From the NCBI GenBank assembly GCA_002070215.1, contig MWCV01000007.1, positions 1,660 to 65,659 of the forward strand: a stretch of 64,000 bases of DNA, given 5' to 3'. Below the pieces are notes generated by a model. That model was not told the origin of the DNA and did not search any database. It saw nothing but the letters and a program-made list of their open reading frames with translations. Positions within the stretch are counted from its first letter, which is position 1; every line of letters begins with the position of its first letter. The translations under genes and the position numbers were made by a program. This document shows positions 34,680-58,588 of the stretch, piece after piece. The stretch is from Chloroflexi bacterium ADurb.Bin180 (GTDB taxonomy: Bacteria; Chloroflexota; Anaerolineae; UBA2200).

Positions 34680-34739
34680 CACTTGTGGGGGTTTGCGCCG
34701 GCCAGTTGACTATCGCCACGCTTTGCATAGAGTACAGCC

Positions 34740-36214: not shown

Positions 36215-36588
36215 TTGGACGCGTGATCCAGCCAGGCGAGGCGGAAGGAGAGGCGCTGGTCTCCTCTGCTCCCGTTGGTTTCCTGGGCGGGGTGGACCCG
36301 GACACGGGTATCGTTATCGAGGCGGGACATCCGTTGGTCGGGCAGTGCGTGGCCGGCAAGGTGCTGGTGTTCCCCACGGGCAAAGGCAGTACCGTTGGCT
36401 CCTACACACTCTACCGCCTGGCCACGCGCGGGCTGGCCCCCTGCGCTCTGATCAATGCCCGCAGCGAGGCCATTGTAGCGGTGGGAGCCATTATGGCCGA
36501 GATCCCGATGCTTGACCAGGTCGATATCTCGTTATTCCACAGCGGCGATCACGTGCGCATCAACGGCGAGGAGATTCTCGTTGGATGA
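36202..36588 (+). CDS. Aconitase X swivel-domain (small) subunit; candidate phosphomevalonate dehydratase small subunit
   Basis: ~128 aa DUF126-like (MLRLIGRVIQPGEAEGEALVS...VLVFPTGKGSTVGSY). ATG at 36202 overlaps the large-subunit end by 13 nt. Confidence 0.65.
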   Translation: MLRLIGRVIQPGEAEGEALVSSAPVGFLGGVDPDTGIVIEAGHPLVGQCVAGKVLVFPTGKGSTVGSYTLYRLATRGLAPCALINARSEAIVAVGAIMAEIPMLDQVDISLFHSGDHVRINGEEILVG

Positions 36589-37390
36589 GCTGCTGTTTGT
36601 CAAACTGGGCGGATCTCTGATCACGCGCAAGTCCGCCGCCAGTGCAGCCAGGCCGCGGGTCATCCGCCGGCTGGCGCACGAGATCCGCGGCGCGCTCGAT
36701 GAGGCGCCTGGCCTCAGGCTGGTGCTGGGGCATGGCAGCGGCTCGTTCGGGCATGTGGTGGCGCACCGCTATGCGGTGCAAAGCGGCTGCCACGACTGGC
36801 TGGGCTATGCCCTCACCAGCGCGGCGGCAGCCCGGCTCAATCGCATCGTCGTCGACGCGTTTCTGGAAGAGGGGGTGCCAGTGGTGGCGTTGCAGCCCTC
36901 GGCCTCCGCGCGCTGCCGGGAAGGCAAGCTGGTGGACCTGGCCTGGCAGCCGGTGGCCGAGCTGCTCCAGCATCAGCTCGTGCCCTTGGTCTATGGCGAT
37001 GTCGCCCTGGATGAGGTATGGGGCTCGACGATCATCTCTACGGAGACGATCTTTGCCTGTCTGGCGCATCACCTCCAGCCGACGCGTGTGCTGCTGGTGG
37101 GCGAGGTGCGCGGGGTCTACACGTCCGACCCCCATCTCGACGCGCGGGCGAGGCTGATCACGTACATCGCTGCCGGGCGACAGATGCCCGAATCTGTCGA
37201 CATCGCCGGCTCCAACGCGGTGGACGTGACCGGCGGCATGCACAGCAAGGTCGATATTATGGCCGCGTTGGTTCGTGAACTACCAGGACTGCTGGTTCAG
37301 TTCTTGTCCGGATCTCGCCCGGGGTTGCTGCGCCGCTCGCTGCTCGACCGCGAGTTGAACCCCGGCACTTGTCTCACTGGCCGTCAGTGA
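36581..37390 (+). CDS. Isopentenyl phosphate kinase (amino-acid kinase family)
   Basis: LFVKLGGSLIT and LGHGSGSFGH motifs of IPK. Proposed TTG start at 36581 has GAGGAG 9 nt upstream and overlaps the acnX-small stop; the ORF frame opens at 36512. Confidence 0.7.
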   Translation: MDELLFVKLGGSLITRKSAASAARPRVIRRLAHEIRGALDEAPGLRLVLGHGSGSFGHVVAHRYAVQSGCHDWLGYALTSAAAARLNRIVVDAFLEEGVPVVALQPSASARCREGKLVDLAWQPVAELLQHQLVPLVYGDVALDEVWGSTIISTETIFACLAHHLQPTRVLLVGEVRGVYTSDPHLDARARLITYIAAGRQMPESVDIAGSNAVDVTGGMHSKVDIMAALVRELPGLLVQFLSGSRPGLLRRSLLDRELNPGTCLTGRQ

Positions 37391-40454: not shown

Positions 40455-40640
40455 TACAAATAGACCTTGATTCTCCGACCCAGTTCTGCTGATGGCCAGA
40501 TTGGCCGATGAAGGCTGGGCGATAGGGTGCGGTTGGAAACGGCCGCACCTCCCATCATTGGAAAGGAGAATCGCCGCGGGAACAGTGATGACGCCGGCGC
40601 CTCCTTCCAAGTGAGGGCCGGCGTTTCTATTTCTCTGAGT
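40455..40640 (+). promoter_or_regulatory. Structured 5' leader of moaA: candidate Moco riboswitch with terminator-type expression platform
   Basis: ~190-nt GC-rich leader with several stems (ggtgcgg...ccgcacc; ctcc...ggag). It ends in a cgccggcg-(17 nt)-cgccggcg hairpin at 40592-40623 followed by tttctatttctct, 20 nt before the moaA start. Confidence 0.45.
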
Positions 40641-40659: not shown

Positions 40660-41655
40660 ATGGCCCACTATGATGCTCACAGCCGTGCAATCAATTACTT
40701 GCGCGTGTCGGTCACCGACCGCTGCAACCTGCGCTGCGAATACTGCATGCCTCCCGAAGGCATCCCCTGGATTCCCCACGACACAGTGCTGCGCTTTGAG
40801 GAGATCGCGCTCATTGTGCGGGCAGCGGCCGAGCTCGGCATCAGCCGGGTGCGGCTCACGGGAGGTGAACCGCTGGTGCGCCTGGGTGTCTGCAGTTTGG
40901 TGCGCATGCTGGCCGAGATACCTGGCGTGCAGGACCTGTCTATGACTAGCAATGGCACCTTGCTGGCCCGCTATGCCGGCGAACTGGCGGCGGCGGGCCT
41001 CGACCGGGTCAATATCAGCCTCGACACCCTGCAGCCAGAGCGCTTTGCCGCGATGACCCGCGGCGGGCGAGTTGAGGATGTGCTGGCTGGCATTGAAGCA
41101 GCACACCAGGCCGGTTTGGAGCCGGTCAAGGTCAACAGCGTCGTCATTCGTGGCGAGAACGATGACGACATCGTCGACCTGGCACGCAAGACGCTGCTGT
41201 CGGGATGGCACGTGCGCTACATCGAATGGATGCCTGTTGGCGAGACGGCACCGGAGGATGAGGCCTGGCGTCACAAGGTGGTGACCGCCGAAGAGATGAA
41301 GCAGCGCATCTCGGCCGAACTGGGGCCGCTGACTGCGGACGGGAGCATCTTCGGCGGCGGCCCGGCGCGCTACTACCGCTTGCCGGGCGCTGAGGGCACT
41401 ATCGGCTTTATCACGCCAGTCAGCGAGCATTTTTGCTATCACTGCAACCGTCTGCGCCTGACCGCTGATGGCCAGCTGCGCCCCTGCCTGCTGTCGGACA
41501 GCGAGGTAGACCTGCGCACGCCCCTCAGGGAGGGGGCCGACCTGGAGCAGATCAAGTCGCTCATTCTGCAGGCCATCGACATCAAGCCGTTGCAGCACCA
41601 TCTGAGCGAGCACGGTTGGCCGGAGAACCGGGTGATGTCGCAAATCGGTGGATGA
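40660..41655 (+). CDS. moaA: GTP 3',8-cyclase (radical SAM)
   Basis: CNLRCEYCMP radical-SAM motif, 331 aa, C-terminal auxiliary cluster CYHCNRLRLTADGQLRPCL. Confidence 0.95.
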   Translation: MAHYDAHSRAINYLRVSVTDRCNLRCEYCMPPEGIPWIPHDTVLRFEEIALIVRAAAELGISRVRLTGGEPLVRLGVCSLVRMLAEIPGVQDLSMTSNGTLLARYAGELAAAGLDRVNISLDTLQPERFAAMTRGGRVEDVLAGIEAAHQAGLEPVKVNSVVIRGENDDDIVDLARKTLLSGWHVRYIEWMPVGETAPEDEAWRHKVVTAEEMKQRISAELGPLTADGSIFGGGPARYYRLPGAEGTIGFITPVSEHFCYHCNRLRLTADGQLRPCLLSDSEVDLRTPLREGADLEQIKSLILQAIDIKPLQHHLSEHGWPENRVMSQIGG

Positions 41656-41658
41656 GCC

Positions 41659-42156
41659 ATGAAGGACAAGCCTGAGCTAACCCACATCGGCCGAGACGGC
41701 CAACTGCAAATGGTGGACGTGGGCGGAAAAGCCGACACGGAAAGGGTGGCTACCGCCAGAGGCCACGTCAGCATGAAGCCTGAGACGCTGGGCCTCATCG
41801 TGGACAAGGCGCTGCCCAAAGGCGACGTGCTTACCGCAGCTCAAGTCGCGGGCATTCTCGCCGCCAAGCAAACCTGGCAGCTCATCCCTCTCTGCCATCC
41901 CTTGATGCTGACCAAGGTCGATGTCGACCTCACGGTGAACCAGGAGCTCTCGCGCATCGAAATCCGCGCGACTGTGCGCTGCCGGGGCAAGACCGGGGTG
42001 GAGATGGAAGCGCTGACTGCGGTCAGCGTGGCGGCACTGACGATCTACGACATGGCCAAAGCCGCAGAAAAGACCATGCGCATCGGCGACATTCGGCTGG
42101 TGAGCAAGAGCGGCGGCAAGAGCGGCGACATTGCCCTGGAGGATGACGCCAGTTGA
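41659..42156 (+). CDS. moaC: Cyclic pyranopterin monophosphate synthase
   Basis: 165 aa MoaC-like ([18 protein letters not shown]...[18 protein letters not shown]). Confidence 0.9.
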
Positions 42157-42404
42157 TGGTCAGAGTGCGTTTCTTCGCCTCCCTGCGCGAGGCAGTGGGA
42201 TTGGAACAAGAGGACGTCAAGCTGCCGCCCGGGGCCACAATCAAGACGCTTCTGCAGACCCTGGCCAGGGCGCATCCGGGGCTGGGCGCCCTCCTCGAGG
42301 GCAGGGGAGTGCGCTTTGCCGTCAACCGTTGCTACGTGCCGCCTGATGCTGGTCTGCAAGAGGGCGACGAAGTGGCTCTGGTCCCGCCGGTGGGTGGCGG
42401 CTAG
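42153..42404 (+). CDS. moaD: Molybdopterin synthase sulfur carrier subunit
   Basis: 83 aa ending in GG (PPVGGG); 4-nt overlap with moaC. Confidence 0.85.
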
Positions 42405-42430: not shown

Positions 42431-42853
42431 ATGGCCTTGAAGCTGTTTGAGGTTACTACAAAACCCATCTCGGCCGATGAAGTGGTGGGCCGCCTCGCGG
42501 ACCCTGAGGTGGGAGCGTTCACGGTCTTTGTGGGCGTGGTGCGCAACAACACCGATGGCCGGCGCACGCTGCATCTGGACTATGAGGCCTATCCCGAGAT
42601 GGCCGAGCAGACGCTGGCCCAGATTGGCGCCGAGATTCAGGAGCGGTGGCCTACGGTGCGCCAGGTGGCCATTGTTCATCGCATTGGCCAGCAGGAGATC
42701 GGGGAGACCAGCGTGGTCATTGCTCTGTCAGCGGCTCACCGCGCCGAGCTCTTTGACTCCCTGCATTATGCCATCGACCGGTTGAAGGAAATCGTGCCCA
42801 TCTGGAAGAAGGAAGTATGGACAGATGGGTCGGTGTGGAGAAGCGAACAGTGA
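42431..42853 (+). CDS. moaE: Molybdopterin synthase catalytic subunit
   Basis: 140 aa MoaE-like (GAFTVFVGVVRN...LHLDYEAY). Confidence 0.88.
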   Translation: MALKLFEVTTKPISADEVVGRLADPEVGAFTVFVGVVRNNTDGRRTLHLDYEAYPEMAEQTLAQIGAEIQERWPTVRQVAIVHRIGQQEIGETSVVIALSAAHRAELFDSLHYAIDRLKEIVPIWKKEVWTDGSVWRSEQ

Positions 42854-42897
42854 GCGAACGCGGTCACAAGGGCCAGCCAGGGACTGACCTGTACCCG

Positions 42898-44115
42898 ATG
42901 CTGAGCGTAGAGGAAGCCACTGACCAGTTGCTGGCCTATTTCCAGACGCTGGAGCCGGAGACGGTTCCCCTGCTGGAGAGCCTGGGCAGGGTGCTGGCAG
43001 AAGATGTCTATGCGGATGTCGATATCCCGCCCCTGAGCAACACCGCAATGGACGGCTATGCCCTCCGGGCTGCCGACACAGCAGGTGCCAGCGGCGCAGC
43101 GCCAGTGGAGCTACGCATCGTCGCTGACCTCGCCGCCGGCTACGTGAGTGAGGTGCTGGTGGTGCCGGGAACGGCTATCCGCATCATGACCGGCGCTCCG
43201 ATACCGGGGGGTGCCGACGCGGTCTTGCCGTTTGAGGACGCCGAACGCAATGGCAAAGTGGTGCGCATTGTCAGGCCGGTTCAGCTCAAGGCCAATGTGC
43301 GCGACGCGGGCGAGGACGTGCAAAAGGGAGAGCTGGTTCTGCACCAGGGCCGCCGGATTCGGCCGCAGGACGTTGGCATGCTGGCCACCGTGGGCCGCAG
43401 ACAGGTGCAGGTTACTCGGCGCCCGCGAGTGGCCATCCTGGCCACGGGCGATGAGGTGGTCGAAGTCGATGCACCCCTCGGCCCGGGCAAGATCCGCAAT
43501 TCGAATAGCTACTCCAATGCAGCGCAAGTACTGGCGACTGGCGGGGTTCCGGTGTTGCTGGGTATCGCTCATGACCAGGTGGAGGACCTGACGGCCAAGA
43601 TCCGCCAGGGATTGGCGCAGAAGGTTGACCTGTTCCTCACCTCGGGCGGGGTATCGGTTGGTGACTTTGATGTGGTGAAGCAGGTGCTCGCCGCGGAAGG
43701 CGAGATGACCTTCTGGCGTGTCCGTATGAAACCGGGCAAGCCGCTCGCTTTCGGTCGTATCGGTGGCGTGCCTTTGCTGGGTCTACCGGGCAATCCGGTA
43801 TCAGCGATGGTCTCTTTCGAGCTGTTTGCCCGAGCGGCCATCCTGAAGATGCTGGGTCAGCGTAACGGGGAACGGCCGTCAGTTGAAGCGGCTCTGGTAG
43901 ACGGGATGAAGAGCAAGGACGGCCGCAGGCACTTTGTGCGGGTCAGGGTCGAGGAGAAGGACGGTGCCTACCAGGCCCGGCTCACGGGCGATCAGGGCTC
44001 TGGGCGGCTCAGTACGATGGTGGAGGCCAATGGCCTGGCCATCATCCCTGAGGAGTGGAGCAGTGCGCCCCCGGGCAGCAAGGTGCGCGTGATGATGCTG
44101 GAAGGCGACCTGTGA
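42898..44115 (+). CDS. moeA: Molybdopterin molybdotransferase
   Basis: MLSVEEATDQLL start typical of MoeA; PGNPVSA signature. The ORF frame opens at 42817 inside moaE. Confidence 0.88.
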   Translation: MLSVEEATDQLLAYFQTLEPETVPLLESLGRVLAEDVYADVDIPPLSNTAMDGYALRAADTAGASGAAPVELRIVADLAAGYVSEVLVVPGTAIRIMTGAPIPGGADAVLPFEDAERNGKVVRIVRPVQLKANVRDAGEDVQKGELVLHQGRRIRPQDVGMLATVGRRQVQVTRRPRVAILATGDEVVEVDAPLGPGKIRNSNSYSNAAQVLATGGVPVLLGIAHDQVEDLTAKIRQGLAQKVDLFLTSGGVSVGDFDVVKQVLAAEGEMTFWRVRMKPGKPLAFGRIGGVPLLGLPGNPVSAMVSFELFARAAILKMLGQRNGERPSVEAALVDGMKSKDGRRHFVRVRVEEKDGAYQARLTGDQGSGRLSTMVEANGLAIIPEEWSSAPPGSKVRVMMLEGDL

Positions 44116-44618
44116 TTACCGTAGGCGTTCTGACCATCAGCGACCGCTGCTCGCGCGGCGAGACGCAGGATCAGAGCGGGCCTCTGCTGCAGCAGATCGC
44201 GCGGGAGCGGCTGGTCGCCCAGGTGACGGTCACCGCGTGCGTGCCGGACGATCGGGAGCAGATTGCCTTCACGCTGCGCGATTGGTGCGACAATGCCAGG
44301 GCGGACCTCATCCTCACCACCGGCGGCACTGGCTTTTCGCCGCGTGACGTAACGCCGGAGGCAATGGCCGACGTAATTGAACGGGAGGCGCCAGGCCTGG
44401 CCGAGGCGATGCGGCGAGAAACAGCGCGGATCACGCCTCACGCCATGCTCTCGCGGGCTGTGGCCGGAATTCGCAGGAGCACGTTGATCGTCAACCTGCC
44501 TGGCAGCGCCAGGGCGGTGGCCGAGAACCTGGAGGCCATCCTGCCCGCCCTGCCACACGGCATCGAGATTCTGAAGGGTGGTCACGGTGCTAACGAGCAC
44601 CACGAATACAAGAAGTAA
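44112..44618 (+). CDS. mogA: Molybdopterin adenylyltransferase MogA/MoaB
   Basis: GTG at 44112 overlaps the moeA stop (GTGA). ITVGVLTISDRCSRGE and GGTGFSPRDVTPEA motifs. Confidence 0.85.
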   Translation: MITVGVLTISDRCSRGETQDQSGPLLQQIARERLVAQVTVTACVPDDREQIAFTLRDWCDNARADLILTTGGTGFSPRDVTPEAMADVIEREAPGLAEAMRRETARITPHAMLSRAVAGIRRSTLIVNLPGSARAVAENLEAILPALPHGIEILKGGHGANEHHEYKK

Positions 44619-44658: not shown

Positions 44659-45486
44659 GTGGGTCTGGTAAAGGACAAAACCGGCCGGCTGCACATCGAG
44701 ACGCAGTTGATGGCCGAATCGCTGATGGACAAGGCACTGCTCGAAAAGACAGAGACGGAGAATATCTTTCGCCCGCTGCCCGAACTGAACGTGATCAAGC
44801 TGGGCGGACAGAGCATCATCGACCGGGGCGCCCAGGTAGTGCTGCCGCTCATAGCAGAGATCGTCGCTGCCAGGGCCAAGCACCAGATGCTCATCGTGAC
44901 GGGCGGCGGAACTCGGAGCCGGCATGCCTATGCTATCGCGTTGGACCTGGGCATGTCCACCGGCATTCTGGCCAAACTGGGCCAGAGCATCAGCGAGCAG
45001 AACGCGCTGATGATCAGCACACTGCTCGCTCCGCACGGCGGGGTCAAGATCGGTCACGACGAAGTGGTGCAACTGCCGGCGTACCTGGCACTGGGCATCA
45101 TTCCGGTGATGCATGCCATGCCTCCCTACGGGCTGTGGGAAGAGCCGGCGGAGAAGGGCCGCATCCCGCCGCACCGCACCGATGCCGGGGCGTTTCTGAC
45201 GGCCGAGGTGCTCGGCGCCAGACGCTGCATCCTGGTCAAGGACGAAAAGGGCCTGTTCACGGCTGATCCCAAGAAGGATCCCCAAGCCAGGTTCATTCCT
45301 GAGATCGAAGTCAATGAGCTGCTGGCGATGGACCTGGCCGACCTGGCCGTTGAACGGACCATGCTTCAGGCACTGGCGAATGCCCGCACCGCCAAAGAGG
45401 TGCTGATCATCAACGGCCGCGAAAAGGGCAACCTGACCAAGGCGCTGCAGGGCAAGAATCCGGGGACGAGGATCTTCAAAGCGTAA
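44659..45486 (+). CDS. Molybdenum storage protein (MosA/MosB)-like amino-acid-kinase family protein
   Basis: LNVIKLGGQSIIDRGAQVVLPLIAEI, RIPPHRTDAGAFL and ARFIPEIE closely mirror motifs I recall from Azotobacter MosA/MosB. AAGGAGG RBS before GTG at 44659; directly follows mogA. Confidence 0.6.
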   Translation: MGLVKDKTGRLHIETQLMAESLMDKALLEKTETENIFRPLPELNVIKLGGQSIIDRGAQVVLPLIAEIVAARAKHQMLIVTGGGTRSRHAYAIALDLGMSTGILAKLGQSISEQNALMISTLLAPHGGVKIGHDEVVQLPAYLALGIIPVMHAMPPYGLWEEPAEKGRIPPHRTDAGAFLTAEVLGARRCILVKDEKGLFTADPKKDPQARFIPEIEVNELLAMDLADLAVERTMLQALANARTAKEVLIINGREKGNLTKALQGKNPGTRIFKA

Positions 45487-45558: not shown

Positions 45559-45942
45559 CTATCCTGGACGGTGCTGCTCTGTCCTGGCAGTGCCCTGGCG
45601 CCTGCTCAGGCGCGCAGCGCCGGGAACCAGGCGAGGAACGGGCGGCCTTGAGCGCGCTTCGCCTCTCTTGCCGACGATGTGCAGCGCCTGTCGATGCACC
45701 AGAGCCAGTGCTACCTGGCGGTGGGCACGTTCCAGGGTGCGCTGAAACGTCGAGCGGGAGATGCCCATGCGTTCGGCGGCCTGGGCCTGAGTAAGGCCTT
45801 CCAGGTCAGCCAGGCGCAGGGCCTCGAGCTCGTCGGGCAGCAGCCTCACCTGGGTGAGGCTGCTGAGGGCGCGCCCGGCAGGCTTGTAGATGGCCTGTGG
45901 CTGAGCGCGGGCCAGGACGCGTCGCTTTCGCGGGCGAGGCAT
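45559..45942 (-). CDS. DUF134 (UPF0251) family DNA-binding protein
   Basis: LRLADLEGLTQAQAAERMGISRSTFQRTL sigma-70 region-4-like HTH typical of DUF134. Confidence 0.65.
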   Translation of the reverse strand: MPRPRKRRVLARAQPQAIYKPAGRALSSLTQVRLLPDELEALRLADLEGLTQAQAAERMGISRSTFQRTLERAHRQVALALVHRQALHIVGKRGEARSRPPVPRLVPGAARLSRRQGTARTEQHRPG

Positions 45943-45948
45943 GGGGGT

Positions 45949-46200
45949 CTAGCCCTCTTTCCGCGCCCGTCGATGCTGACGGCCAGGACGGCCTTCTGCC
46001 TCTTCTTCGCTGGCGTGCTCGCCGCGGGGAAGGTAGACGACATCGGCGCCGACGTCCTTGGCGATGGCCTCGAGTTCAGCGCGGCGCAAGAACTCGCGGT
46101 AGAAATCGAGGTCCACGCCGGCAACGGCGACGATGGCGAAACGTGGCTGGCCGGCGCCTTCGGCGACGTGGCGGCGCTGACGAACGTAGATCTTGCTCAT
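45949..46200 (-). CDS. NifX/NifB-like dinitrogenase FeMo-cofactor-binding family small protein
   Basis: MSKIYV...RFAIVAVAGVDLDF...ADVVYLPRGEH fits the NifX_NifB domain. AAGGAG RBS before ATG at 46200; the usual partner of DUF134 genes. Confidence 0.5.
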   Translation of the reverse strand: MSKIYVRQRRHVAEGAGQPRFAIVAVAGVDLDFYREFLRRAELEAIAKDVGADVVYLPRGEHASEEEAEGRPGRQHRRARKEG

Positions 46201-47024: not shown

Positions 47025-48488
47025 ATGGATAGGCAGGGTATGACCGGCAGTGGTGCTCTCGTAGCGGAGCAGGTTTCATATGGATACCTCGGCGCGGGCA
47101 AGGCGCTGGACGGAGTCTCGCTGGCCGTTGCGCCGGGAGAGGTCGTGTTGATTACGGGACCTTCTGGCTCCGGCAAGAGCACCCTGGCGCGATGCCTGAC
47201 TGGGCTCATCCCGCACCTCTACCACGGGGAGCTGCAGGGTGCCTGCCTGGTGGATGGGGTGTTAACGACGGACACGCCGCTGTGGCGTTTGGCCAAACGG
47301 GCGGGATTCGTCTTTCAGAATCCGGGCGAGCAGCTCCTGGCTACCTCGGTGGAAGAGGAAATCATCTTTGGCCTGGAGAACCTGGGGCTGCCGGCCGAAG
47401 AGATCGAGTCGCGTCTGGAAGAGGCTCTGGAGCGCTTTGGGCTGAAGGAGATGCGCCACCGCGCTCCGCAGACTCTGTCCGGCGGGGAGCAGCAGAAGCT
47501 GGCCCTGGCGGCGATTATGGCCCGCCATCCGGCAGCGCTGGTGCTCGACGAGCCGCTGTCGATGCTGGATACCACTGCGGCCAGCGCTCTGGTTGAGCAC
47601 TTGCTCGGTTTGGCCAGAGATGGGGTCACGGTGGTGCTGTGTGAGCACCGCGCCGAGTATCTGGAGGGCAGGCCCGACGTTCGGGTCGTGTCGATGGGCG
47701 CTGCGGCACCGCATCTGGCGCCGCCATCGTCCATCCCTTTGCCAGCCAGTGCTGAGGGTCAGGTGGTGCTCGAGGTTCAGGGGCTGGGCGTCACCCTGGG
47801 TGACAAACGCGTGCTGCAAGGCCTGAACCTGGGGCTTGCCGGCGGGCAGGTAGTGGTGATCGTGGGTCGCAACGGGGTGGGCAAGACCACCCTGCTGCGG
47901 GCCCTGTGCGGGCTGCAGAAACATGAAGGGACGGTGCTAGCCGACGGTGCCAGGCCGGAGCTGGGCCTGGTCTTTCAGAATGCCGACCTGCAGCTCTTCA
48001 ACGCATCGGTGCGGGACGAGATCCTGTACCGTATGCCGCAGCCAGACATGGCCCTGTACTCGTGGTTGCTGCAGGCTCTGGGCCTGGGCAGCTACGAGCA
48101 GGTGCCCCCGCTGCTGTTGAGCGAGGGCGAGAAGAAGCGGCTGGCCCTGGCGACGGTGATGATGCGCAATCCGAAACACGGCCTGCTGCTGGATGAGCCA
48201 GCCGTTGGACAGGACGCCGCGCACAAGCAGATGCTGATGAGCATCCTGCGCGCAGTGGCGCAGAGCGGCAAGGTCGTTCTGGTGACGACTCACGACCTGT
48301 CTCTGGCAGTGCAGGCGGACCGGCTGATCCTGCTGGGCGCAGATGGTTTTGTGGCCGATGGGCCGCCCCACCAGGTGCTGCAGAACGATGCGGCGTGGTC
48401 AGCGGTGGGGCTGGTGGTTCCGGATTGGGTGAGGAACCCGGAGCGCCGGGCCGAGGCAGAGGGCGCAACGGTCGGAGGGGGTGCTTGA
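47025..48488 (+). CDS. ecfA: ECF transporter fused double ATPase (EcfA1-EcfA2)
   Basis: Two ABC cassettes (GPSGSGKSTLARCL ... LSGGEQQKLALA; GRNGVGKTTLLRAL ... LSEGEKKRLALA) in 487 aa. Confidence 0.85.
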   Translation: MDRQGMTGSGALVAEQVSYGYLGAGKALDGVSLAVAPGEVVLITGPSGSGKSTLARCLTGLIPHLYHGELQGACLVDGVLTTDTPLWRLAKRAGFVFQNPGEQLLATSVEEEIIFGLENLGLPAEEIESRLEEALERFGLKEMRHRAPQTLSGGEQQKLALAAIMARHPAALVLDEPLSMLDTTAASALVEHLLGLARDGVTVVLCEHRAEYLEGRPDVRVVSMGAAAPHLAPPSSIPLPASAEGQVVLEVQGLGVTLGDKRVLQGLNLGLAGGQVVVIVGRNGVGKTTLLRALCGLQKHEGTVLADGARPELGLVFQNADLQLFNASVRDEILYRMPQPDMALYSWLLQALGLGSYEQVPPLLLSEGEKKRLALATVMMRNPKHGLLLDEPAVGQDAAHKQMLMSILRAVAQSGKVVLVTTHDLSLAVQADRLILLGADGFVADGPPHQVLQNDAAWSAVGLVVPDWVRNPERRAEAEGATVGGGA

Positions 48489-49249
48489 TTCGGCTGGGGC
48501 CCGCGCGCGGGGCTCGCGCCATCGTGCTGAGGGAGGATTCGCCGCTTCGACGGGTGGATCCGAGGGTCAAACTGGCACTGAGTCTGGGCGCATCGCTGGC
48601 GGTGATGCTGCCTCTGGAGCGGCTGATAGCCTTTATGGCGCTCTATGCGCTTTTCCTGTTGTGGGCGCGGCTAATGGATGAGGTCGCCAGGCAGGTCTGG
48701 CGGCTCAAGTGGATTCTGATTCTGCTCTTTCTGGTGGACTGGCTGATTATCTCGCTGGACCTGGCGGTGATCGTGACCCTGCGGCTGACGCTGCTGGCGG
48801 GAACGTTCACGGTGTTCTTTGCCACGACCAAACCGGAAGAACTGCGGCTCGCCCTGGAGTGGCTGAGGGTTCCGCACCGCTACGCTTTCAGCGTGAGCCT
48901 GGCTTTTCAGAGCGTGGGCTTGCTGGACGATCAGTGGCGGGCCATTCGTGAGGCGCAACAGTCACGCGGGGCCTGGTCGCCGCCGGAAGAAAAGCGCGGT
49001 CTGCGGTGGAACGACCTGCGAGCGCAGGTCAGCGCGGTGACCCTGGCGGTCAGGGATATGGTGGCTCTGAGCGTGCCGGCTATTGTGCTGGCAGTGAAGC
49101 ACGCCTGGGCGATGAACGAGGCGGCCTACGCCCGGGGATTTGATTCGCCCGAGCGCGTGCCCTACCACCGGCTCAAGATGACCGGGCTGGACTGGCTGCT
49201 GCTGACCGGAGCTCTCGCCACAGGGGTGATTCTGGTCTGGGTGAAGTAG
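48485..49249 (+). CDS. ecfT: ECF transporter transmembrane T component (CbiQ family)
   Basis: Polytopic CbiQ-like (VDPRVKLALSLGASLAVMLP...). TTG at 48485 overlaps the ecfA stop; the ORF frame opens at 48395. Confidence 0.7.
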   Translation: MIRLGPARGARAIVLREDSPLRRVDPRVKLALSLGASLAVMLPLERLIAFMALYALFLLWARLMDEVARQVWRLKWILILLFLVDWLIISLDLAVIVTLRLTLLAGTFTVFFATTKPEELRLALEWLRVPHRYAFSVSLAFQSVGLLDDQWRAIREAQQSRGAWSPPEEKRGLRWNDLRAQVSAVTLAVRDMVALSVPAIVLAVKHAWAMNEAAYARGFDSPERVPYHRLKMTGLDWLLLTGALATGVILVWVK

Positions 49250-49272
49250 CCGCACGTGGATGGGGGTAGAGC

Positions 49273-49776
49273 GTGAAGCAAAAGACACGTATCAACATCG
49301 GACTGCTGGTCCTGGTGGTGCTTGTTGGCAGCGTGCTGGGCATCGAGGCCTGGCGCAGGGCCAGGGCGGAGCGCCAGACCGTAGGTGAGGTGGTTCTGAC
49401 GCCTGGCAGCGTGCCCATCTACCTGGACGGCCAGCTCATCGCCGGCTTTCAGCCGACGGACCTGGAGCAGCTCAGCAAGGTGAGCTTTGTCGATGCCGAA
49501 CAAGGCAAGACGCAGGAAGGGTGGCTGCTGCGCGACGTCCTCCTGCTCCACCTGCAGCGCAAGCGGCTCAAAGCAGACTCGCTCATCACGGTGAGCAGCT
49601 CAAGCCGAAACAAGTCAGCTCGAGTCACCTGGGCCCAGGCCGATGAGGCGGCCAACTGGGTCATGTTCGACCTGTCGGGGCGTGGAACACTCAAACTGGT
49701 GTCTGTTCTCGAAGGGCTCAAGACGCGCGACCAATGGGTCCAGGACGTGGACAGGATCGAGATCACGAGCAAATGA
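49273..49776 (+). CDS. Membrane-anchored protein with one cysteine-less sulfite-oxidase-like (Oxidored_molyb-like) domain
   Basis: N-terminal TM helix, then VVLTPGSVPIYLDGQ...EGWLLRDVLLLHL...NWVMFDLSGRGTLKLVSVLE...DVDRIEI. Stop overlaps start of the ECF S component (ATGA). Confidence 0.55.
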   Translation: MKQKTRINIGLLVLVVLVGSVLGIEAWRRARAERQTVGEVVLTPGSVPIYLDGQLIAGFQPTDLEQLSKVSFVDAEQGKTQEGWLLRDVLLLHLQRKRLKADSLITVSSSSRNKSARVTWAQADEAANWVMFDLSGRGTLKLVSVLEGLKTRDQWVQDVDRIEITSK

Positions 49777-50318
49777 AGCCACGTTACTTCTCGACCTTTC
49801 AACTGATTCTGCTGGCGCAGTTCGCCGCGCTGATTGTGGTAGCCAAGATCGCACTGCGGCTGCCGCTGCAGCTCCCCGGTCACTCGGGGCTCTTCTGGAT
49901 GGCCATTGTGATGGTCGGCGCCGGGGTGGTGCCCAAGCGCGGCGCGGCTACACTGATCGGGCTGACTTCGGCCATTCTGGCCGCCTTTCTCGGCCTGGGT
50001 GACTTTGGTGCCCTGGACACGTTTCTCTCCTACCTGGCGGTGGGCGTGGCGACGGATCTGGCCCTGTGGCTGATGGGCAGCCCGGAGAACCTGGCGGTGG
50101 CACCGCTGGCGGGAGCTACAGGGCATTTCGGCAAGTTCCTGGTCAAGTGGGCGCTGGCGGGTGTTCTGGGGGCGCCGATGGGGTTCGTTGCCCTAGGTCT
50201 GCTCAAGTCCATCGTCAGCTATCTGGTGTTCGGTGCGTTGGGCGGGTTCCTGGGGGCACTCACCCTGGCTGCTCTGAGGCGTGCCGGTTTCTTTGCCTAT
50301 CTGGCAGAACGAAAGTGA
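49773..50318 (+). CDS. ECF transporter substrate-specific S component (unknown substrate)
   Basis: ~181 aa with 5-6 TM helices. Translationally coupled to the upstream domain protein and downstream of ecfA/ecfT. Confidence 0.55.
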   Translation: MKPRYFSTFQLILLAQFAALIVVAKIALRLPLQLPGHSGLFWMAIVMVGAGVVPKRGAATLIGLTSAILAAFLGLGDFGALDTFLSYLAVGVATDLALWLMGSPENLAVAPLAGATGHFGKFLVKWALAGVLGAPMGFVALGLLKSIVSYLVFGALGGFLGALTLAALRRAGFFAYLAERK

Positions 50319-50323
50319 GGTAG

Positions 50324-51040
50324 GTGGCAGTGGAGATACTGAGAGGCTTTGCTCAGGCAGTGCAATTGATCCTGCACCGGGATCCCGCCTTGGCTACGAT
50401 TGTGGCGCTCTCATTGAGGGTTACGGGTATCGCTCTCCTGTTCAGCACTGTGCTCGGCATACCGCTGGGCATCTTCCTGGGCTTTAGTCGGTTTGTCGGT
50501 CGGCGGTTGGTCATCGCCATGCTTTACACTGGAATGGGCTTTCCTCCGGTGGTGGTCGGGCTGTTTGTATACATGCTCATCTCGCGCAGCGGCCCGATTG
50601 GCAAGTTGGCTCTACCCTTTGTACCCAGCCTATTCACGCCGGGGGCGATGATCATCGCACAGACGATCATCTCCTTCCCGCTGATCGCCGGCTTTACCAT
50701 GGCCGCCGTAATGGGGGTCGACCCGCAATTGCGCCAGCAGGTGATGGCTCTCGGTGCTACCCGCTGGCAGGGAGCGTGGACGGTGCTCACCGAGGCACGG
50801 GTCGGGGTGCTGGTGTCCATCGTGGCCGGCTTTGGCAGCGTGATCTCTGAGGTCGGTGCGGTGATGATGGTTGGCGGCAACATCGAGAACTATACGCGGG
50901 TGCTCACTACAGCTATCGTGCTGGAGACCAACAAAGGTCGTTTCACTCTGGCCATGGCGCTGGGGGTCATTCTGCTGGCCCTGTCGTTTATCGCCAACGT
51001 GATCATGCTGCGGCTGCAGGGAAGGACTCTGGACGAATGA
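50324..51040 (+). CDS. tupB: Tungstate/molybdate ABC transporter permease
   Basis: 238 aa ABC permease with 5-6 TM helices and an EAA-like loop; coupled to the tupC ATPase. Confidence 0.7.
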   Translation: MAVEILRGFAQAVQLILHRDPALATIVALSLRVTGIALLFSTVLGIPLGIFLGFSRFVGRRLVIAMLYTGMGFPPVVVGLFVYMLISRSGPIGKLALPFVPSLFTPGAMIIAQTIISFPLIAGFTMAAVMGVDPQLRQQVMALGATRWQGAWTVLTEARVGVLVSIVAGFGSVISEVGAVMMVGGNIENYTRVLTTAIVLETNKGRFTLAMALGVILLALSFIANVIMLRLQGRTLDE

Positions 51041-51768
51041 GCGAATCGATTTTTCGGCTCGAAGGAGTGTCCAAAGGCTACAACGGACGTTGCGTGGTCG
51101 ACGTTCCCGGGCTAGAGATCCACAGAGGAGAGATCTTTTGCGTTGTTGGCCCGAGCGGCGCCGGCAAGAGCACCCTGCTGCGGCTGCTGAACTTTCTCGA
51201 GCCGCCGAGTACGGGCACCATTCATTTTGACGGCGGCAGGTATGGCCCGGCGGACGAAGTGCCTCTGGCGCAGCGCCGCAAGGTAACCACTGTCTTTCAG
51301 CGCTCGATCCTGCTGAATCGCTCGGTCTGGGCCAACGTCGATTATGGCCTGTGGCTGCGCGGCGACAGGACGGGCGGTGAGGCGGTCGACGCGGCGCTGG
51401 AACAGGTAGGGCTCAAGGATCTGGCCCGCCAGCAAGCGCGCACGCTTTCCGGCGGCGAGCTGCAGCGCGTGGCCCTGGCCCGCGCCATTGTGATCAAGCC
51501 GGAGGTGCTGCTGCTCGATGAACCAACGGCCAACCTCGATCCGTACAACGTCGGCCTGATCGAGGAGATCGTGAGGGAGCTCAATCACACTCGCGGCACG
51601 ACGGTGGTTCTGGTGACCCATAATGTGTTTCAGGCCAAGCGCCTGGCCGACCGGGTCGCGTTGCTGTTGGAGTGCAAGCTCGTCGAGATCGCGGAGGTAC
51701 ATCAGTTCTTCGAGTCCCCCAGCGACCCGCGCACCGGGGCTTTTGTGCGCGGCGACCTGGTCTACTAA
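51037..51768 (+). CDS. tupC: Tungstate/molybdate ABC transporter ATP-binding protein
   Basis: GPSGAGKSTLLRLL Walker A, LSGGELQRVALARA signature, 243 aa. Confidence 0.8.
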   Translation: MSESIFRLEGVSKGYNGRCVVDVPGLEIHRGEIFCVVGPSGAGKSTLLRLLNFLEPPSTGTIHFDGGRYGPADEVPLAQRRKVTTVFQRSILLNRSVWANVDYGLWLRGDRTGGEAVDAALEQVGLKDLARQQARTLSGGELQRVALARAIVIKPEVLLLDEPTANLDPYNVGLIEEIVRELNHTRGTTVVLVTHNVFQAKRLADRVALLLECKLVEIAEVHQFFESPSDPRTGAFVRGDLVY

Positions 51769-52032
51769 CAAGTTGTCCAAATGGCCTGGCAGAGAGGGAC
51801 GCGCGGTGCAGGATGCAAGATACGGTCCTCGGACAATAGGTCTTGCCCACCTTTTGCCCGCATCCTGCCTCCTGTATCTTGCATCCTGCTTTGCCACAAA
51901 CGGTCGGCAGCGTCGCACCGCGACGCTGCCCGACTGACCTGAGCAAGAAGGAGGGAGTGAGACAGAAATCATTCGCCGTTCGGTTTGGGATGAGCTATGG
52001 CTCAGAGTCACTATCTTTTGGAGGAGAGAACC

Positions 52033-53370
52033 ATGAAGCGTACGTTGTCCAATCTGTTGTTGATCGTGGTGGTGCTGGGGATGCTGGTGTCCTGCAAGGC
52101 GCCGGCGCCAACTCCCACCGCAGTGCCACCGACCAAGGTGCCGCCGACGGCTACACCAGTTCCGCCGACCCCGGTACCGCCCACGCCCGTGCCGCCCACG
52201 GCTGTGCCGCCGACGCCGGCGCCGACCGCCATTCCCATGGCTGCCGGCCGCCTGCTGTTGGCCACGACCACCAGCACGCGCGATTCGGGTCTGCTCGACT
52301 TTATCCTGCCGGACTTTGAGAAGCAGTACAACGTCAAGGTCGACGTAGTGGCTGTGGGCAGCGGTCAGGCGATGAAGATCGGCCAGGACGGTAATGCCGA
52401 AGTCCTGCTGGTTCACTCGCGCGCCGCCGAAGACAAGTTCATGGCCGAAGGCCACGGCATCCGGCGCGAGGACGTGATGTACAACGACTTTGTACTGGTC
52501 GGCCCTGCCGCTGACCCGGCCGGCATCAAGGGCATGAAGAAGGCCGCCAAAGTCTTTGCCCAGATGGCCGAGAAGAAGGTCGAGTTTATCTCCCGCGCCG
52601 ACGAATCCGGCACGCATGTCAAGGAAAAGGACCTCTGGAAGGCCGCTGGAATCACCCCGGAGGGCTCCTGGTACGTTGCGGCTGGTGCAGGGATGGGCGC
52701 CGTACTCACCATGGCCAATGAAAAGCAGGCCTACACGCTGAGCGACCGCGCTACCTATCTGGCCCGCAAGGCAGAAGGGCTGCAACTGGAGATCCTGGTC
52801 GAGGGTGATCCAGTGATGTTCAACCCCTACGGGGTCATCCAGGTCGATCCGAAGAAGAACACGCAGATCAAGGGCGAGTTGGCCAAAGAGTTCATCGACT
52901 GGATCGTCTCCGTGCCGGTGCAGGAAAAGATCGCCACCTTCGGTGTCGACAAGTGGGGTGCGCCGCTCTTCTTCCCCGACTCGACCCTGTACAAGGCCGC
53001 TCACGCCCCGGCCCCGGCCGCGGGACTCAAGATTACCGGACTGGTCAACAAGCCGGTAACGCTGTCTGAGGCCGAGGTCAAGGCCATGCCGACGATGGAA
53101 GCCGAGCGCGCCAACAAGGAAGGCGTCATGGAAAAGTACACCGGCGTGTCCATCGTCAAGCTGCTCGAGCTCGCCGGCCACAAGGCCGAGGCAACGACCC
53201 TTGTCTTTGTTGCCGAGGATGGCTACACCGCCGATGTCGTCCTGGCCGATGTGCTCAAGTGCGAAAAGTGCATCCTGTCTTTCCGCAGCCAGGGTGGCTT
53301 TAGCTCGGTCCTGCCCGATTTCTCGGGCAAGGCGCAGGTCAAGGGCGTCGTGGAGATGCAGCTAAAGTAG
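52033..53370 (+). CDS. tupA: Tungstate-binding lipoprotein TupA fused to a C-terminal sulfite-oxidase-like domain
   Basis: Lipobox LVSC, PT-rich linker, TupA signature LATTTSTRDSGLLD, then a ~125-aa domain (GLKITGLVNKPVTLSEAEVKAMP...YTGVSIVKLLELAG...DGYTADVV). GGAGGAGAG RBS before ATG at 52033. Confidence 0.8.
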   Translation: MKRTLSNLLLIVVVLGMLVSCKAPAPTPTAVPPTKVPPTATPVPPTPVPPTPVPPTAVPPTPAPTAIPMAAGRLLLATTTSTRDSGLLDFILPDFEKQYNVKVDVVAVGSGQAMKIGQDGNAEVLLVHSRAAEDKFMAEGHGIRREDVMYNDFVLVGPAADPAGIKGMKKAAKVFAQMAEKKVEFISRADESGTHVKEKDLWKAAGITPEGSWYVAAGAGMGAVLTMANEKQAYTLSDRATYLARKAEGLQLEILVEGDPVMFNPYGVIQVDPKKNTQIKGELAKEFIDWIVSVPVQEKIATFGVDKWGAPLFFPDSTLYKAAHAPAPAAGLKITGLVNKPVTLSEAEVKAMPTMEAERANKEGVMEKYTGVSIVKLLELAGHKAEATTLVFVAEDGYTADVVLADVLKCEKCILSFRSQGGFSSVLPDFSGKAQVKGVVEMQLK

Positions 53371-54644: not shown

Positions 54645-55130
54645 ATGATGCGCAGGAACGTTGTCATTGCTTTGCTGCTCGTTGCGGTGGTGTTGTGCAG
54701 TTGCGCTCCCAAGGGCAGCGCTGCCCCGACTGTGGACTGGAAGCTGGACATCAAGGGCGATGTGGGCAAGCCCGTCTCCCTGACCTATGCCGACCTGGCC
54801 AAGATGCCACAAATTACACTCAAAGACGTGATGATGCAAAAGGCTGCCGGTGAGCCCGAGCCGACGACCTGGACCGGTGTCGCTCTCTCCGAGATCCTGA
54901 AACAGGCAGAGGGTGATGCCAACCCATCGTCGATTACGGCCGTAGCCGCCGATGGCTATGCCGTGGCCATACCCCGCGACGAGCTGGAGGGAGCCATCGT
55001 TGCGCTGAAGGACGGCAAGGACTGGATTGTCAAATCAGATCCCGATAAGGGGCCGATTCGCCTGGTCTGCCCCAAGGCGCCAGCCAATCGCTGGCTGTTT
55101 TCGCTGACCGAGATCAAAGTCAAGAAGTAG
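54645..55130 (+). CDS. Lipoprotein with single cysteine-less sulfite-oxidase-like (Oxidored_molyb-like) domain
   Basis: Lipobox LCSCA, then WKLDIKGDVGKPVSLTYADLAKMP...TWTGVALSEILKQAEG...AADGYAVAI...GPIRLVCPKAPANRWLFSLTEIKV. No Mo-ligand Cys loop; GGAGG RBS. Confidence 0.6.
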   Translation: MMRRNVVIALLLVAVVLCSCAPKGSAAPTVDWKLDIKGDVGKPVSLTYADLAKMPQITLKDVMMQKAAGEPEPTTWTGVALSEILKQAEGDANPSSITAVAADGYAVAIPRDELEGAIVALKDGKDWIVKSDPDKGPIRLVCPKAPANRWLFSLTEIKVKK

Positions 55131-55160
55131 ATTATGCTTTCTGTGCCGGAGGGTGTGCTT

Positions 55161-56655: not shown

Positions 56656-57747
56656 GTGAGACGTCGGCTGCTTGTGGTTTGCCTGTGCTTTCTGCTGGTG
56701 TTGCCGGCCGGGTGCGCCCCAAAGAAGAGAACCGCGGTGCCCGTCTTTTTCGCGGGGAGTCTCATTATCCCTTTCCAGGAACTCGAGGCGGCTTACGAGG
56801 CGCAACATCCGGAGGTGGACCTGCTGCTGGAGGGCCATGGCAGCATCCAGGTTATCCGCCACGTGACCGAGATACACGAGCTCATCGATGTGGTGGTGAC
56901 GGCCGACCACGCGCTCATCCCGATGCTGATGTACTCGGCGCAGGTGCCGGAAACCAGGGCGCCCTATGCCGACTGGTACATCGAATTCGCCACGAACAAG
57001 CTCTCGCTGGCCTATCGATCCGACAGCCGCTACGCTAACGAGATCACCGCAGACAACTGGTACGAGGTCATCTCGCGCCCCGACGTCAGACTGGGTCTGG
57101 CCGACCCGCGCTTTGATGCCTGCGGCTACCGCGCGCTGATGGTGGTGCAGATGGCCGAAAAGCTCTACGGCCAGCCCACATTGTTCGAAGACCTGATCAC
57201 CGGCAGCTTCCGCACCGGGATCACCACGCGCCTGGAGAACGGACGCCTGGTCATTCACGTGCCAGAGATCCTCGAGGTCAAGGACAAGTCGCCTCTGGTG
57301 CTCCGCGCCTACAGCATTCAACTGATAGCGCTGCTCGAATCGGGCGACCTGGACTATGCTTTCGAGTATGAGAGCGTCATCAAGCAGCACCAGCTCCAGT
57401 CGGTGGCGCTTCCCGACGAACTGAACCTGGGTGCTGAGGCGCTGGCCGATCACTATGGCCAGGTAGAAGTGCGTATGGACTATCAGCGCTTCGCTTCGGT
57501 GCAGCCGGTGTTTCGCGGCGAGCCCATCGCCTACGGGGTGACCATTCCCACCAATGCTCCTCATCCCGCAGAAGCGGCGAGGTTCGTGGCCTTTTTGCTG
57601 GGGCCAGAGGGACAAAAGATCCTGCTGAACAACCATCAGCCCCTGATCATCCCCGGACGAGCCAGCAACTATGAGCGTGTGCCTGCGGCACTGCAGTCAC
57701 TGTGCGTGCCGGCGCCCGAGCTATCGGGCACCGGCCTGTTAAGGTGA
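56656..57747 (+). CDS. wtpA: Molybdate/tungstate-binding lipoprotein of the WtpA/ModA family
   Basis: Lipobox LPAGCA, VFFAGSLIIPFQELEAAYEAQHP start, and 363 aa length fit WtpA better than ModA. Confidence 0.6.
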   Translation: MRRRLLVVCLCFLLVLPAGCAPKKRTAVPVFFAGSLIIPFQELEAAYEAQHPEVDLLLEGHGSIQVIRHVTEIHELIDVVVTADHALIPMLMYSAQVPETRAPYADWYIEFATNKLSLAYRSDSRYANEITADNWYEVISRPDVRLGLADPRFDACGYRALMVVQMAEKLYGQPTLFEDLITGSFRTGITTRLENGRLVIHVPEILEVKDKSPLVLRAYSIQLIALLESGDLDYAFEYESVIKQHQLQSVALPDELNLGAEALADHYGQVEVRMDYQRFASVQPVFRGEPIAYGVTIPTNAPHPAEAARFVAFLLGPEGQKILLNNHQPLIIPGRASNYERVPAALQSLCVPAPELSGTGLLR

Positions 57748-57751
57748 TGCG

Positions 57752-58588
57752 GTGAGCAGCCCCAGGGCGGCGCCTTCCGGTACGGGGCGATTTCGCCGAC
57801 CCGACGGGCTGGCCAAAGCATTTGCCCTGTTGAGCGCGCTGCTGTTACTCTTTGTGCTGCTGCCGCTGCTGGACACTCTGCTGGGAACCAGCTTCAGGGC
57901 GCTGCTGGCCACGCTGACTGATTCGCAGGTTATGAACGCACTGGCACTGACCTTTCTTGCCGCTGCCGTGGCCACTTTGCTCACCCTTCTGACTGGAGTT
58001 CCTCTGGCCTACCTTCTGGCGCGCTATGACTTTGGCGGCAAGAGGTGGGTAGAGGGGGTGGTGAACCTGCCGGTGGTGGTTCCCCATACGGCTGCCGGCA
58101 TCGCCCTGCTGATGGTCTTTGGCCGGCAGGGGGTGCTGGGCAAGCCGCTGGGAACGGTGGGGCTCAGCTTTACCGATACCTTTGCCGGGGTAGTGGTGGG
58201 GATGCTCTTTGTGAGCCTGCCGTTCCTGGTGAACGCGGCCAGAGAGTCCTTCGAGATGGTGGATCCCGAGCTGGAGAGAATGGCCGAGACGCAGGGTGCC
58301 ACGAGCTGGCAGGCTTTCTGGTTGGTGGCCTTGCCTCTGGCCCTGCGGGGCATCCTGGCGGGGGCGCTCTTGATGTGGGGCCGGGCCATCAGCGAGTTCG
58401 GCGCGGTGGTGATCCTGGCGTATCACCCCAAGACCGTGCCGGTGCTCGTTTTTGAGCGCTTTGAAGGTTTCGGTCTGGCGGCGGCTCAGCCGGTGGCGGT
58501 GCTGCTCATCATCGCTTCGCTGGCGGTGTTCGTACTCCTCCAGACGCTGGTCGTCCCCCCTCGCGACGGACGGCACTCGAACCTCTAG
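57752..58588 (+). CDS. wtpB: Molybdate/tungstate ABC transporter permease (WtpB/ModB family)
   Basis: CysT/ModB-like permease (MVDPELERMAETQGATSWQAFWLVALP EAA loop). No cognate ATPase follows. Confidence 0.7.
   Translation: MSSPRAAPSGTGRFRRPDGLAKAFALLSALLLLFVLLPLLDTLLGTSFRALLATLTDSQVMNALALTFLAAAVATLLTLLTGVPLAYLLARYDFGGKRWVEGVVNLPVVVPHTAAGIALLMVFGRQGVLGKPLGTVGLSFTDTFAGVVVGMLFVSLPFLVNAARESFEMVDPELERMAETQGATSWQAFWLVALPLALRGILAGALLMWGRAISEFGAVVILAYHPKTVPVLVFERFEGFGLAAAQPVAVLLIIASLAVFVLLQTLVVPPRDGRHSNL

Follow-up and report, generated by a model that had tools for sequence, protein, structure and literature searches.

A single-gene homolog of the molybdenum storage protein at the end of a riboswitch-headed pterin cofactor gene string in an Anaerolineae bacterium

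The stretch of DNA analysed here, referred to as the window, comprises 64,000 nucleotides (nt) of Chloroflexi bacterium ADurb.Bin180, with positions counted from its first letter. The gene at 44659-45486, the last of a string of genes for molybdenum or tungsten pterin cofactor synthesis, encodes a protein that, judged from its sequence and predicted fold, is a true MoSto (molybdenum storage protein) family member and a relative of the Azotobacter cage protein formed by MosA (alpha) and MosB (beta). With moderate confidence, it is taken to build a homo-oligomeric, ATP-driven cage that would store or concentrate tungsten (W) or molybdenum (Mo) and serve cofactor synthesis. A likeness to MosA and MosB had been proposed for this open reading frame (ORF) in an earlier note and is supported by a phmmer search of PDB chains, in which MosB scored 242 bits (E 8e-71, residues 12-272 of the window protein) and MosA 171 bits (E 3e-49), compared with 52 bits for the best uridine monophosphate (UMP) kinase. 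Such likeness is, at the level of sequence, far beyond chance. Full-length identity of the window protein amounts to 49% with MosB and 40% with MosA, and MosA and MosB are themselves 43% identical. The motifs VIKLGG, DRGA, LPL, RIPPHRTDAGAFL, ARFIPE and LTKALQG are present, as the earlier note had described, apart from its VKIGG, which is the MosA spelling of the first. The AA_kinase fold family was matched in the domain search, and the AlphaFold2 (AF2) model (pLDDT 84.6, pTM 0.81) gave a consistent picture, since a Foldseek search of the PDB returned MoSto chains at all ranks from 1 to 15 (E 2e-25 to 1e-22, TM up to 0.79), while UMP kinases appeared at E about 5e-13 and TM about 0.6. A compact family, with 79 clusters at E <= 1e-30, emerged when 1.84 billion cluster representatives were searched exhaustively. 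Regarding the start of the gene, a Shine-Dalgarno sequence, AAGGAGG, lies 4 nt before the GTG codon, and 11 positions between residues 6 and 23 are invariant in the ortholog alignment, which therefore supports this start.

A phylogeny with PyrH, MosA and MosB had been called for and was constructed by neighbour joining, with two archaeal UMP kinases as the root. The MoSto family was monophyletic with 100% bootstrap support and stood apart from the archaeal UMP kinases, with the window protein inside it. Together with P0121 and P0122, the window protein formed one group (96-98% bootstrap) outside the MosA and MosB clades; the deep branching order within the family received bootstraps of 4-55%. 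The earlier note had also allowed that the gene might simply be pyrH in an odd location, and the Prokaryotic Genome Annotation Pipeline (PGAP) names the identical protein P0002 “uridine kinase”. Such a reading draws on the AA_kinase fold and on weak matches to the pyrH models. Indeed, archaeal UMP kinase (P. furiosus 2BRI/2JI5, A. fulgidus 2IJ9) is the closest relative outside the MoSto family, sharing with the window protein the fold, the GGG phosphate loop, the T-D motif and a VDG.Y.ADP-like adenine-binding segment. Nevertheless, the window protein scored 65.3 against a cutoff of 158 for the archaeal model (pyrH_arch, TIGR02076) and 36.1 against 243.9 for the bacterial one (pyrH_bact, TIGR02075), and its position in the tree is in the MoSto clade rather than with the UMP kinases. 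The UMP-site loop of P. furiosus, GGTHPGHTTD, is replaced by the MoSto loop HAMPPYGLWEEPAEKGRIPPHRTD, which is 13 residues longer and retains only the T-D pair. A further difference is an extension of 40 residues at the N-terminus, absent from UMP kinases; residues 1-42 can be aligned with the N-termini of MosA and MosB and have no counterpart in the P. furiosus enzyme. A search for pyrH in the window found none, the only matches being to the MoSto genes themselves. The probability that the protein is a UMP kinase, or a uridine kinase as PGAP has it, is consequently regarded as negligible. The same PGAP name is attached to P0056, P0310 and other MoSto-family proteins, where it is a misannotation; by the NCBIfam cutoffs these proteins are not even UMP kinases.

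The residues on which the function of MoSto depends were examined next to the variant chains in the PDB that mark functional positions, namely K-beta42S (6RIS), beta-L131H (6H74) and alpha-H156A (6H6W). Among 81 orthologs of the window protein, Lys47, which corresponds to beta-K42 of MosB, is invariant, and the motifs GGQS, TGGGTRSRH, RTD and KDE..DPK are invariant or at least 98% conserved. Met154, the equivalent of beta-M149, is kept in 80 of the 81 and belongs to a conserved M154-PPY stretch; MosA has Phe at this position. The MoSto-specific loop is equal in length to that of MosB. Both the methionine and the N-terminal arm have a reported role in the Azotobacter protein: Met-beta149 is said, in a 2019 PNAS study, to act as a gate, and the arm reportedly locks the neighbouring ATP site (attributed to Brunle et al., 2019).

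It should be considered whether one gene is sufficient for such a cage. Locus comparisons covered the best 80 of 221 species-level genome matches, all from Chloroflexota and mostly Anaerolineae metagenome-assembled genomes (MAGs), whose proteins are 69-89% identical to the window protein. One MoSto gene was found within 10 kb in 80/80 of these loci, and no second MoSto-like gene occurs in the 64-kb window, which agrees with the single copy described in the earlier note. In other lineages, tandem pairs are observed. In L082, a paralog 54% identical to P0123 begins 9 nt after that gene; in L083, a P0149-type gene directly precedes P0128; and in L084, 4 nt separate the gene of the fusion protein P0129 from that of a catalytic subunit downstream. 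The contigs carrying P0122, P0123 and P0128 measure 1.4-1.9 kb, and tandem partners are visible there. In several deep lineages of the family, represented by P0124, P0129, P0134, P0146, P0149, P0153, P0162 and P0173, the catalytic lysine is replaced by A, G, H or Q, and wherever gene context is visible these lysine-less forms are the partner in a tandem pair. Such a distribution of substitutions suggests that non-catalytic MoSto subunits evolved repeatedly.

The pairs in other lineages, and the (alpha-beta)3 composition of the characterised MoSto, raise the alternative that the window protein supplies the catalytic (beta-like) subunit to a conventional hetero-oligomer, with the gene for the other subunit lying outside the 64 kb of the genome visible here. 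A “type 2” paralog subclade (L072, L073, L075-L078), about 70% identical to type 1 and with few close relatives, would be the obvious source of such a partner, and type 1 and an unlinked type 2 gene indeed occur together in two MAGs (L045/L073 and L017/L077) out of about 78 represented in the matches listed. As an alpha-equivalent, type 2 is an unlikely candidate, however: it keeps every catalytic motif, and its genes lie in unrelated housekeeping contexts without Mo/W functions nearby. A search seeded with a type-2 paralog returned no protein from ADurb.Bin180. With no partner within 10 kb at any of the 80 loci, the hetero-oligomer is considered improbable. UMP kinases, the parent family of MoSto, are homo-hexamers, and the parsimonious reading is that the window protein would likewise be a homo-oligomer.

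The position and control of the gene provide a connection to cofactor synthesis. As stated in the earlier note, it lies directly downstream of mogA; the gap is 40 nt, and the gene closes a moaA-moaC-moaD-moaE-moeA-mogA string (Table 1). Neighbour counts here and below refer to type-1 loci with enough flanking sequence, with denominators of 44, 47 or 52, and by this measure only a minority of MoSto genes (5/47) adjoin mogA. An aptamer of the molybdenum/tungsten cofactor (Moco/Tuco) class, RF01055, the sole Rfam riboswitch in the window, separates a promoter-like site from moaA. Its P3 hairpin is missing, as it is in all 11 copies aligned, the window and 10 orthologous ones. In an nhmmer census, RF01055 was present in 20 of the 80 related loci, and 20 of 21 matches were located upstream on the MoSto strand. 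About ten of these head a tup...MoSto arrangement and five a moaA...MoSto arrangement, and in L005, L010 and L023 the riboswitch directly precedes the MoSto gene. Terminator prediction around the gene returned none, which is uninformative in a genome of 63% GC. Riboswitches of the Moco class are OFF switches in the characterised case, and the MoSto protein would therefore be made when cofactor is scarce. In comparison with the known regulon (Regulski et al. 2008), the window copy is full-length and stands, as in the established cases, before genes of molybdopterin (MPT) synthesis, with other copies before tungstate transporters; the difference is that a MoSto gene is the last of the controlled unit here and the first in L005, L010 and L023. 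P3-less RNAs were found by Regulski et al. to correlate almost perfectly with tungsten-cofactor metabolism, for which tupA/tupB served as marker (PMC2408646). Separately, locus L053 contains a selenocysteine tRNA (tRNA-Sec) gene at 12388-12836 (+), beside a second P3-less riboswitch and just downstream of a gene for the TiaS-like protein described below. This tRNA fits the presence of selenocysteine-containing W/Mo formate dehydrogenases in these organisms. To our knowledge, a MoSto-family gene has not been listed among those controlled by Moco/Tuco riboswitches.

Downstream of the MoSto gene, the neighbourhood is also conserved. The most frequent neighbour, found in 40 of 52 loci, encodes a protein resembling the TCKD domain of TiaS. 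It scores 43 bits with the methanogenesis marker 11 model, which is below the cutoff of that model, and its closest solved relatives are the N-domain of TiaS and P. furiosus 3U02 (E about 1e-6). The gene recurs in the distant locus L081 (1-372) beside P0122, a homolog 55% identical to the window protein, and there a homolog of the small 83-residue ORF of the window is situated between it and the MoSto gene. The small ORF matched no Pfam or NCBIfam family. In 31/52 loci, a gene for the DUF134 protein lies downstream of MoSto at a distance of no more than 3 kb. Further downstream lies a module of the energy-coupling factor (ECF) transporter type with a YkoEDC-like composition (47025-50318), that is, a fused double ATPase, a CbiQ-family T component, a 167-residue ORF (orf167) that matched no Pfam or NCBIfam family, and a PF09819-type S component. 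This module is conserved downstream of MoSto, and an ECF transporter was counted as a neighbour in 17/44 loci. In L084 (2524-5553), P0129 (732 residues) consists of a CbiQ/EcfT-like domain, an S-like membrane segment and a lysine-less MoSto domain. The PF09819-type protein of the window is 27% identical over 132 residues to the membrane part of P0129, and the catalytic subunit adjoining P0129 is 53% identical to the window protein. Through this fusion and its catalytic neighbour, the ECF module is tied to MoSto, and the sequences hint that it may be an importer of Mo or W. We know of no description of an ECF-type Mo/W importer.

Two tungstate-type ATP-binding cassette (ABC) transporters follow. 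The first is Tup-like, and an ortholog of its TupA-like binding protein is encoded directly upstream of MoSto in 30 of 47 loci. With the TupA model itself, the window copy scores 218 bits, below the cutoff of 400. The second transporter is WtpA with WtpB, and the window showed no binding protein of the ModA type. Judged by gene content, tungsten is indicated by these surroundings no less than molybdenum, and whether tungsten would be the main cargo of the protein is considered an even call. A TupA-like protein was also seen in L011 (8559-9870); its C-terminal likeness to the sulfite-oxidase-type Oxidored_molyb domain is weak. Further ORFs with an Oxidored_molyb domain are located at 54645-56591 of the window.

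On this basis, a process for the delivery and storage of the metal can be proposed. The protein would self-assemble into a cage, most simply through a hexamer like that of UMP kinases, in which every subunit would be catalytic. The amino-acid-kinase site, comprising Lys47, GGQS and TGGGTRSRH, would bind ATP/Mg together with tungstate or molybdate, and hydrolysis of ATP would move the oxyanion beyond the Met154 loop and so into the cavity, for condensation into polyoxometalate clusters. Subsequently, the stored metal would be released to MoeA, encoded two genes upstream, for Tuco or Moco. Metal might be supplied by the Tup-like and Wtp tungstate transporters and possibly by the adjacent ECF transporter, while the P3-less riboswitch would couple MoSto expression to cofactor demand. 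Under such control, the protein may act as an ATP-driven intracellular sink that aids scavenging, rather than as a store for surplus metal. What the sequences establish in this picture is the family and fold of the protein, its retained catalytic residues, the single gene, the riboswitch and the tungsten-type surroundings; the oligomer, the loading by ATP, the clusters and the choice of metal are inferred.

Several observations weigh against this storage cage, and the first concerns the cluster ligands. In A. vinelandii MoSto, alpha-His156 and Glu129 are covalent ligands of the Mo8 cluster, and a W3 cluster on the threefold axis is held by three symmetry-related histidines (PMC4504029). At the alpha-His156 position, the window protein has Gly158, and the counterpart of alpha-Glu129 is ambiguous in the alignment, being either G132 or H133. 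The threefold-axis histidine, which we take to be alpha-His140, corresponds to Tyr142. Since the alpha-type covalent ligands are missing, the cluster chemistry, if any, must differ. The expected induction at low cofactor suggests scavenging or concentrating more than a surplus store, and the two MAGs with a second, unlinked paralog make a hetero-oligomer conceivable in some genomes. As for the cargo, genes with Oxidored_molyb domains are nearby, and these typically encode Mo enzymes; Tup-like and Wtp transporters, like P3-less riboswitches, correlate with the use of tungsten but do not prove it. Regarding the ligands, MosB also lacks equivalents of alpha-His156, alpha-His140 and Glu129. Where alpha has V-E129-H130-P and beta GGAG, the clade of the window protein has a conserved G-H-D-D/E loop, which, speculatively, could supply polar ligands for a cluster.

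The missing ligands also bring in a different function, in which the protein would be a MoSto-derived ATPase that works in the Mo/W cofactor pathway as enzyme or chaperone and forms no polyoxometalate deposits. It would transiently activate the oxyanion, select between W and Mo, or pass the oxyanion on to MoeA; the TiaS-like protein and the ECF module might take part in this. The gene is predicted to be co-transcribed with biosynthetic genes and is regulated by the riboswitch as they are, and induction at low cofactor would suit a pathway enzyme. Moreover, simple storage leaves unexplained the tight linkage to the TiaS-TCKD-like protein, which is of an ATP-binding type and accompanies MoSto even in L081. 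On the other side stand the 49% identity to MosB and the conservation of the MoSto loop, the methionine gate and the N-terminal arm, all of which make sense for a pump that fills a cage. In A. vinelandii MoSto, clusters are held mostly by non-covalent contacts (PMC4504029), and the loss of histidine ligands therefore does not preclude storage. The pathway enzyme or chaperone is accordingly held to be unlikely, and the storage or concentrating cage is retained. A bolder version of the latter can be put forward only tentatively, and we doubt that it holds in full: a homo-oligomeric nanocage dedicated to tungsten, in which W-dependent anaerobes would have their first known polyoxotungstate store filled by ATP, possibly nearer to the ancestral one-subunit form and switched on by the Tuco riboswitch. 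Tup, Wtp and a hitherto unrecognised ECF oxyanion importer, fused in one lineage to a MoSto subunit (P0129 in L084), would feed it, and loading or release would be assisted by the TiaS-like protein and the product of the small ORF.

Comparison with characterised systems places these proposals in perspective. A. vinelandii MoSto (MosA/MosB; PDB 2OGX, 4F6T, 6RIS and 7ZSE, among others) belongs to the same family and has the same fold as the window protein, with which it shares the N-terminal arm, the catalytic lysine, the nucleotide motifs and the loop with the methionine gate. Tungsten is a known cargo of the Azotobacter protein (PMC4504029), as is also apparent from the titles of PDB entries 2OGX and 7ZSE. 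In contrast, A. vinelandii has an adjacent mosA/mosB pair, whereas the lineage of the window has one gene that is neither alpha nor beta. Furthermore, MoSto of A. vinelandii is linked to nitrogenase, while the window gene keeps company with genes of pterin-cofactor synthesis, with a Tuco-type riboswitch and with tungstate transporters. The annotated genes of the window include no nitrogenase-like ORF, and a tblastn search with a NifH query gave no NifH-like match in the window or the 80 loci (1.1 Mb). The host is, according to this gene content, a non-diazotrophic Wood-Ljungdahl bacterium of the Anaerolineae. A role like the one proposed for the window protein is filled by TOBE/molbindin proteins (Mop, ModG and Tub of E. 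limosum), which have an unrelated fold and mechanism. In anaerobes, TOBE proteins are an intracellular tungstate/molybdate buffer for pterin-cofactor enzymes, fed by TupABC (PMC11980592). They bind about eight oxyanions per hexamer passively, whereas cages of the MoSto type are loaded in an ATP-dependent manner and accommodate 70-100 or more metal atoms as polyoxometalates (PMC4504029; PMC6448029).

The family assignment itself is not new, being already present in database names: “Molybdenum storage protein subunit beta” (Prokka-style) and “molybdenum storage protein” (Joint Genome Institute), besides the PGAP name given above. Among the 24 papers in the searchable literature that mention the protein, none was found on MoSto homologs outside Azotobacter and none that links MoSto to Chloroflexota; MoSto has been said to have “no known homologs” (PMC6448029) and to be confined to “some N2-fixing organisms” (PMC11980592). 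What is new is the combination of the single-gene form, control by a Tuco-type riboswitch, linkage to tungstate transporters and an ECF module, and a non-diazotrophic host. Although published work regards MoSto as peculiar to Azotobacter and a handful of other nitrogen fixers, the family is in fact abundant in Anaerolineae, a dominant group of anaerobic digesters and sediments, and 5562 of the candidate proteins scored match at E <= 1e-10. In these bacteria, a single gene would serve pterin-cofactor rather than nitrogenase metabolism. A functional one-subunit cage, if confirmed, would simplify the scaffold available to polyoxometalate nanochemistry, might explain how a metal in short supply is buffered in tungsten-dependent anaerobes, and would enlarge the Moco/Tuco riboswitch regulon by a new member.

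Table 1. Features of the window from the riboswitch to the second tungstate-type transporter.
Feature	Position	Strand	Basis and remarks
Sigma-70-like promoter candidate, before riboswitch and moaA	40422..40451	+	TTTGCA-18-TATAAT, 10/12 matches; consensus match only
Moco/Tuco riboswitch aptamer RF01055, P3-less	40464..40584	+	63.3 bits vs gathering threshold 36, E 7e-13, full model
moaA, radical S-adenosylmethionine (radical-SAM) cyclic pyranopterin monophosphate (cPMP) synthase	40660..41655	+	Radical_SAM and Mob_synth_C domains
moaC	41659..42156	+	MoaC, 198.6 bits
moaD, ThiS-fold sulfur carrier	42153..42404	+	ThiS family, 70.6 bits
moaE	42431..42853	+	MoaE, 132 bits
moeA, metal insertase	42817..44115	+	MoeA_N, MoCF_biosynth and MoeA_C domains
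mogA/moaB-type MPT adenylyltransferase	44055..44618	+	MoCF_biosynth 113.7 bits; NCBIfam molybdopterin adenylyltransferase 155 vs cutoff 158
MoSto-family protein, beta-like catalytic type, single gene	44659..45486	+	275 residues, GTG start; PDB matches, AF2 model, conserved motifs
DUF134 helix-turn-helix protein, candidate regulator, convergent with MoSto	45559..45942	-	PF02001, 58 bits
Small 83-residue ORF (MSKIYVRQRR...), upstream of DUF134	45949..46200	-	Found in 34/52 type-1 loci
Strong promoter-like site before the small ORF and DUF134 unit	46325-46297	-	11/12 matches
TiaS-TCKD-like protein, 231 residues	46319..47014	+	TiaS_TCKD 27.5 bits
Fused ECF-transporter ATPase, EcfA1A2-like	47025..48488	+	Two ABC_tran domains; ECF_ATPase_1 289 bits
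ECF T component, CbiQ family	48395..49249 (true start probably later)	+	CbiQ 55.8 bits
PF09819-type ECF S-component-like membrane protein	49734..50318	+	ABC_cobalt 24.6 bits, about at threshold
TupB-like ABC permease	50324..51040	+	ABC_perm1 249 bits; TupB 156 vs ModB 106 bits
ABC ATPase of the Tup-like transporter	51037..51768	+	ABC_tran 107 bits
TupA-like tungstate-binding protein with Oxidored_molyb-like C-terminal domain	51997..53370	+	PBP_like_2 167 bits; weak Oxidored_molyb match
WtpA and WtpB, second tungstate-type ABC transporter	56656..58588	+	WtpA TIGR03730 313.5 vs cutoff 242.75; WtpB 291 bits

Other parts of the window provide additional information on the host. The Wood-Ljungdahl metabolism mentioned in the earlier note is evident from a complete-looking cluster at 113-24279 (-), which includes RACo, AcsD, AcsB, a CooS-type carbon monoxide dehydrogenase, NuoF-like and ferredoxin subunits, Fhs, FolD and methylenetetrahydrofolate reductase (MTHFR). 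At 33336-37390 (+), genes for a UbiD-family decarboxylase, the AcnX large subunit, a DUF126 protein resembling the AcnX small subunit, and isopentenyl phosphate kinase are arranged in a row, which by its gene content looks like an archaeal-type (anhydromevalonate phosphate) mevalonate pathway in a Chloroflexota genome. Finally, a RuBisCO-like protein is encoded at 59422-60729 (-), adjoining an FGGY kinase; its best match is 2,3-diketo-5-methylthiopentyl-1-phosphate enolase, with a score of 379 bits, below the cutoff of 409.

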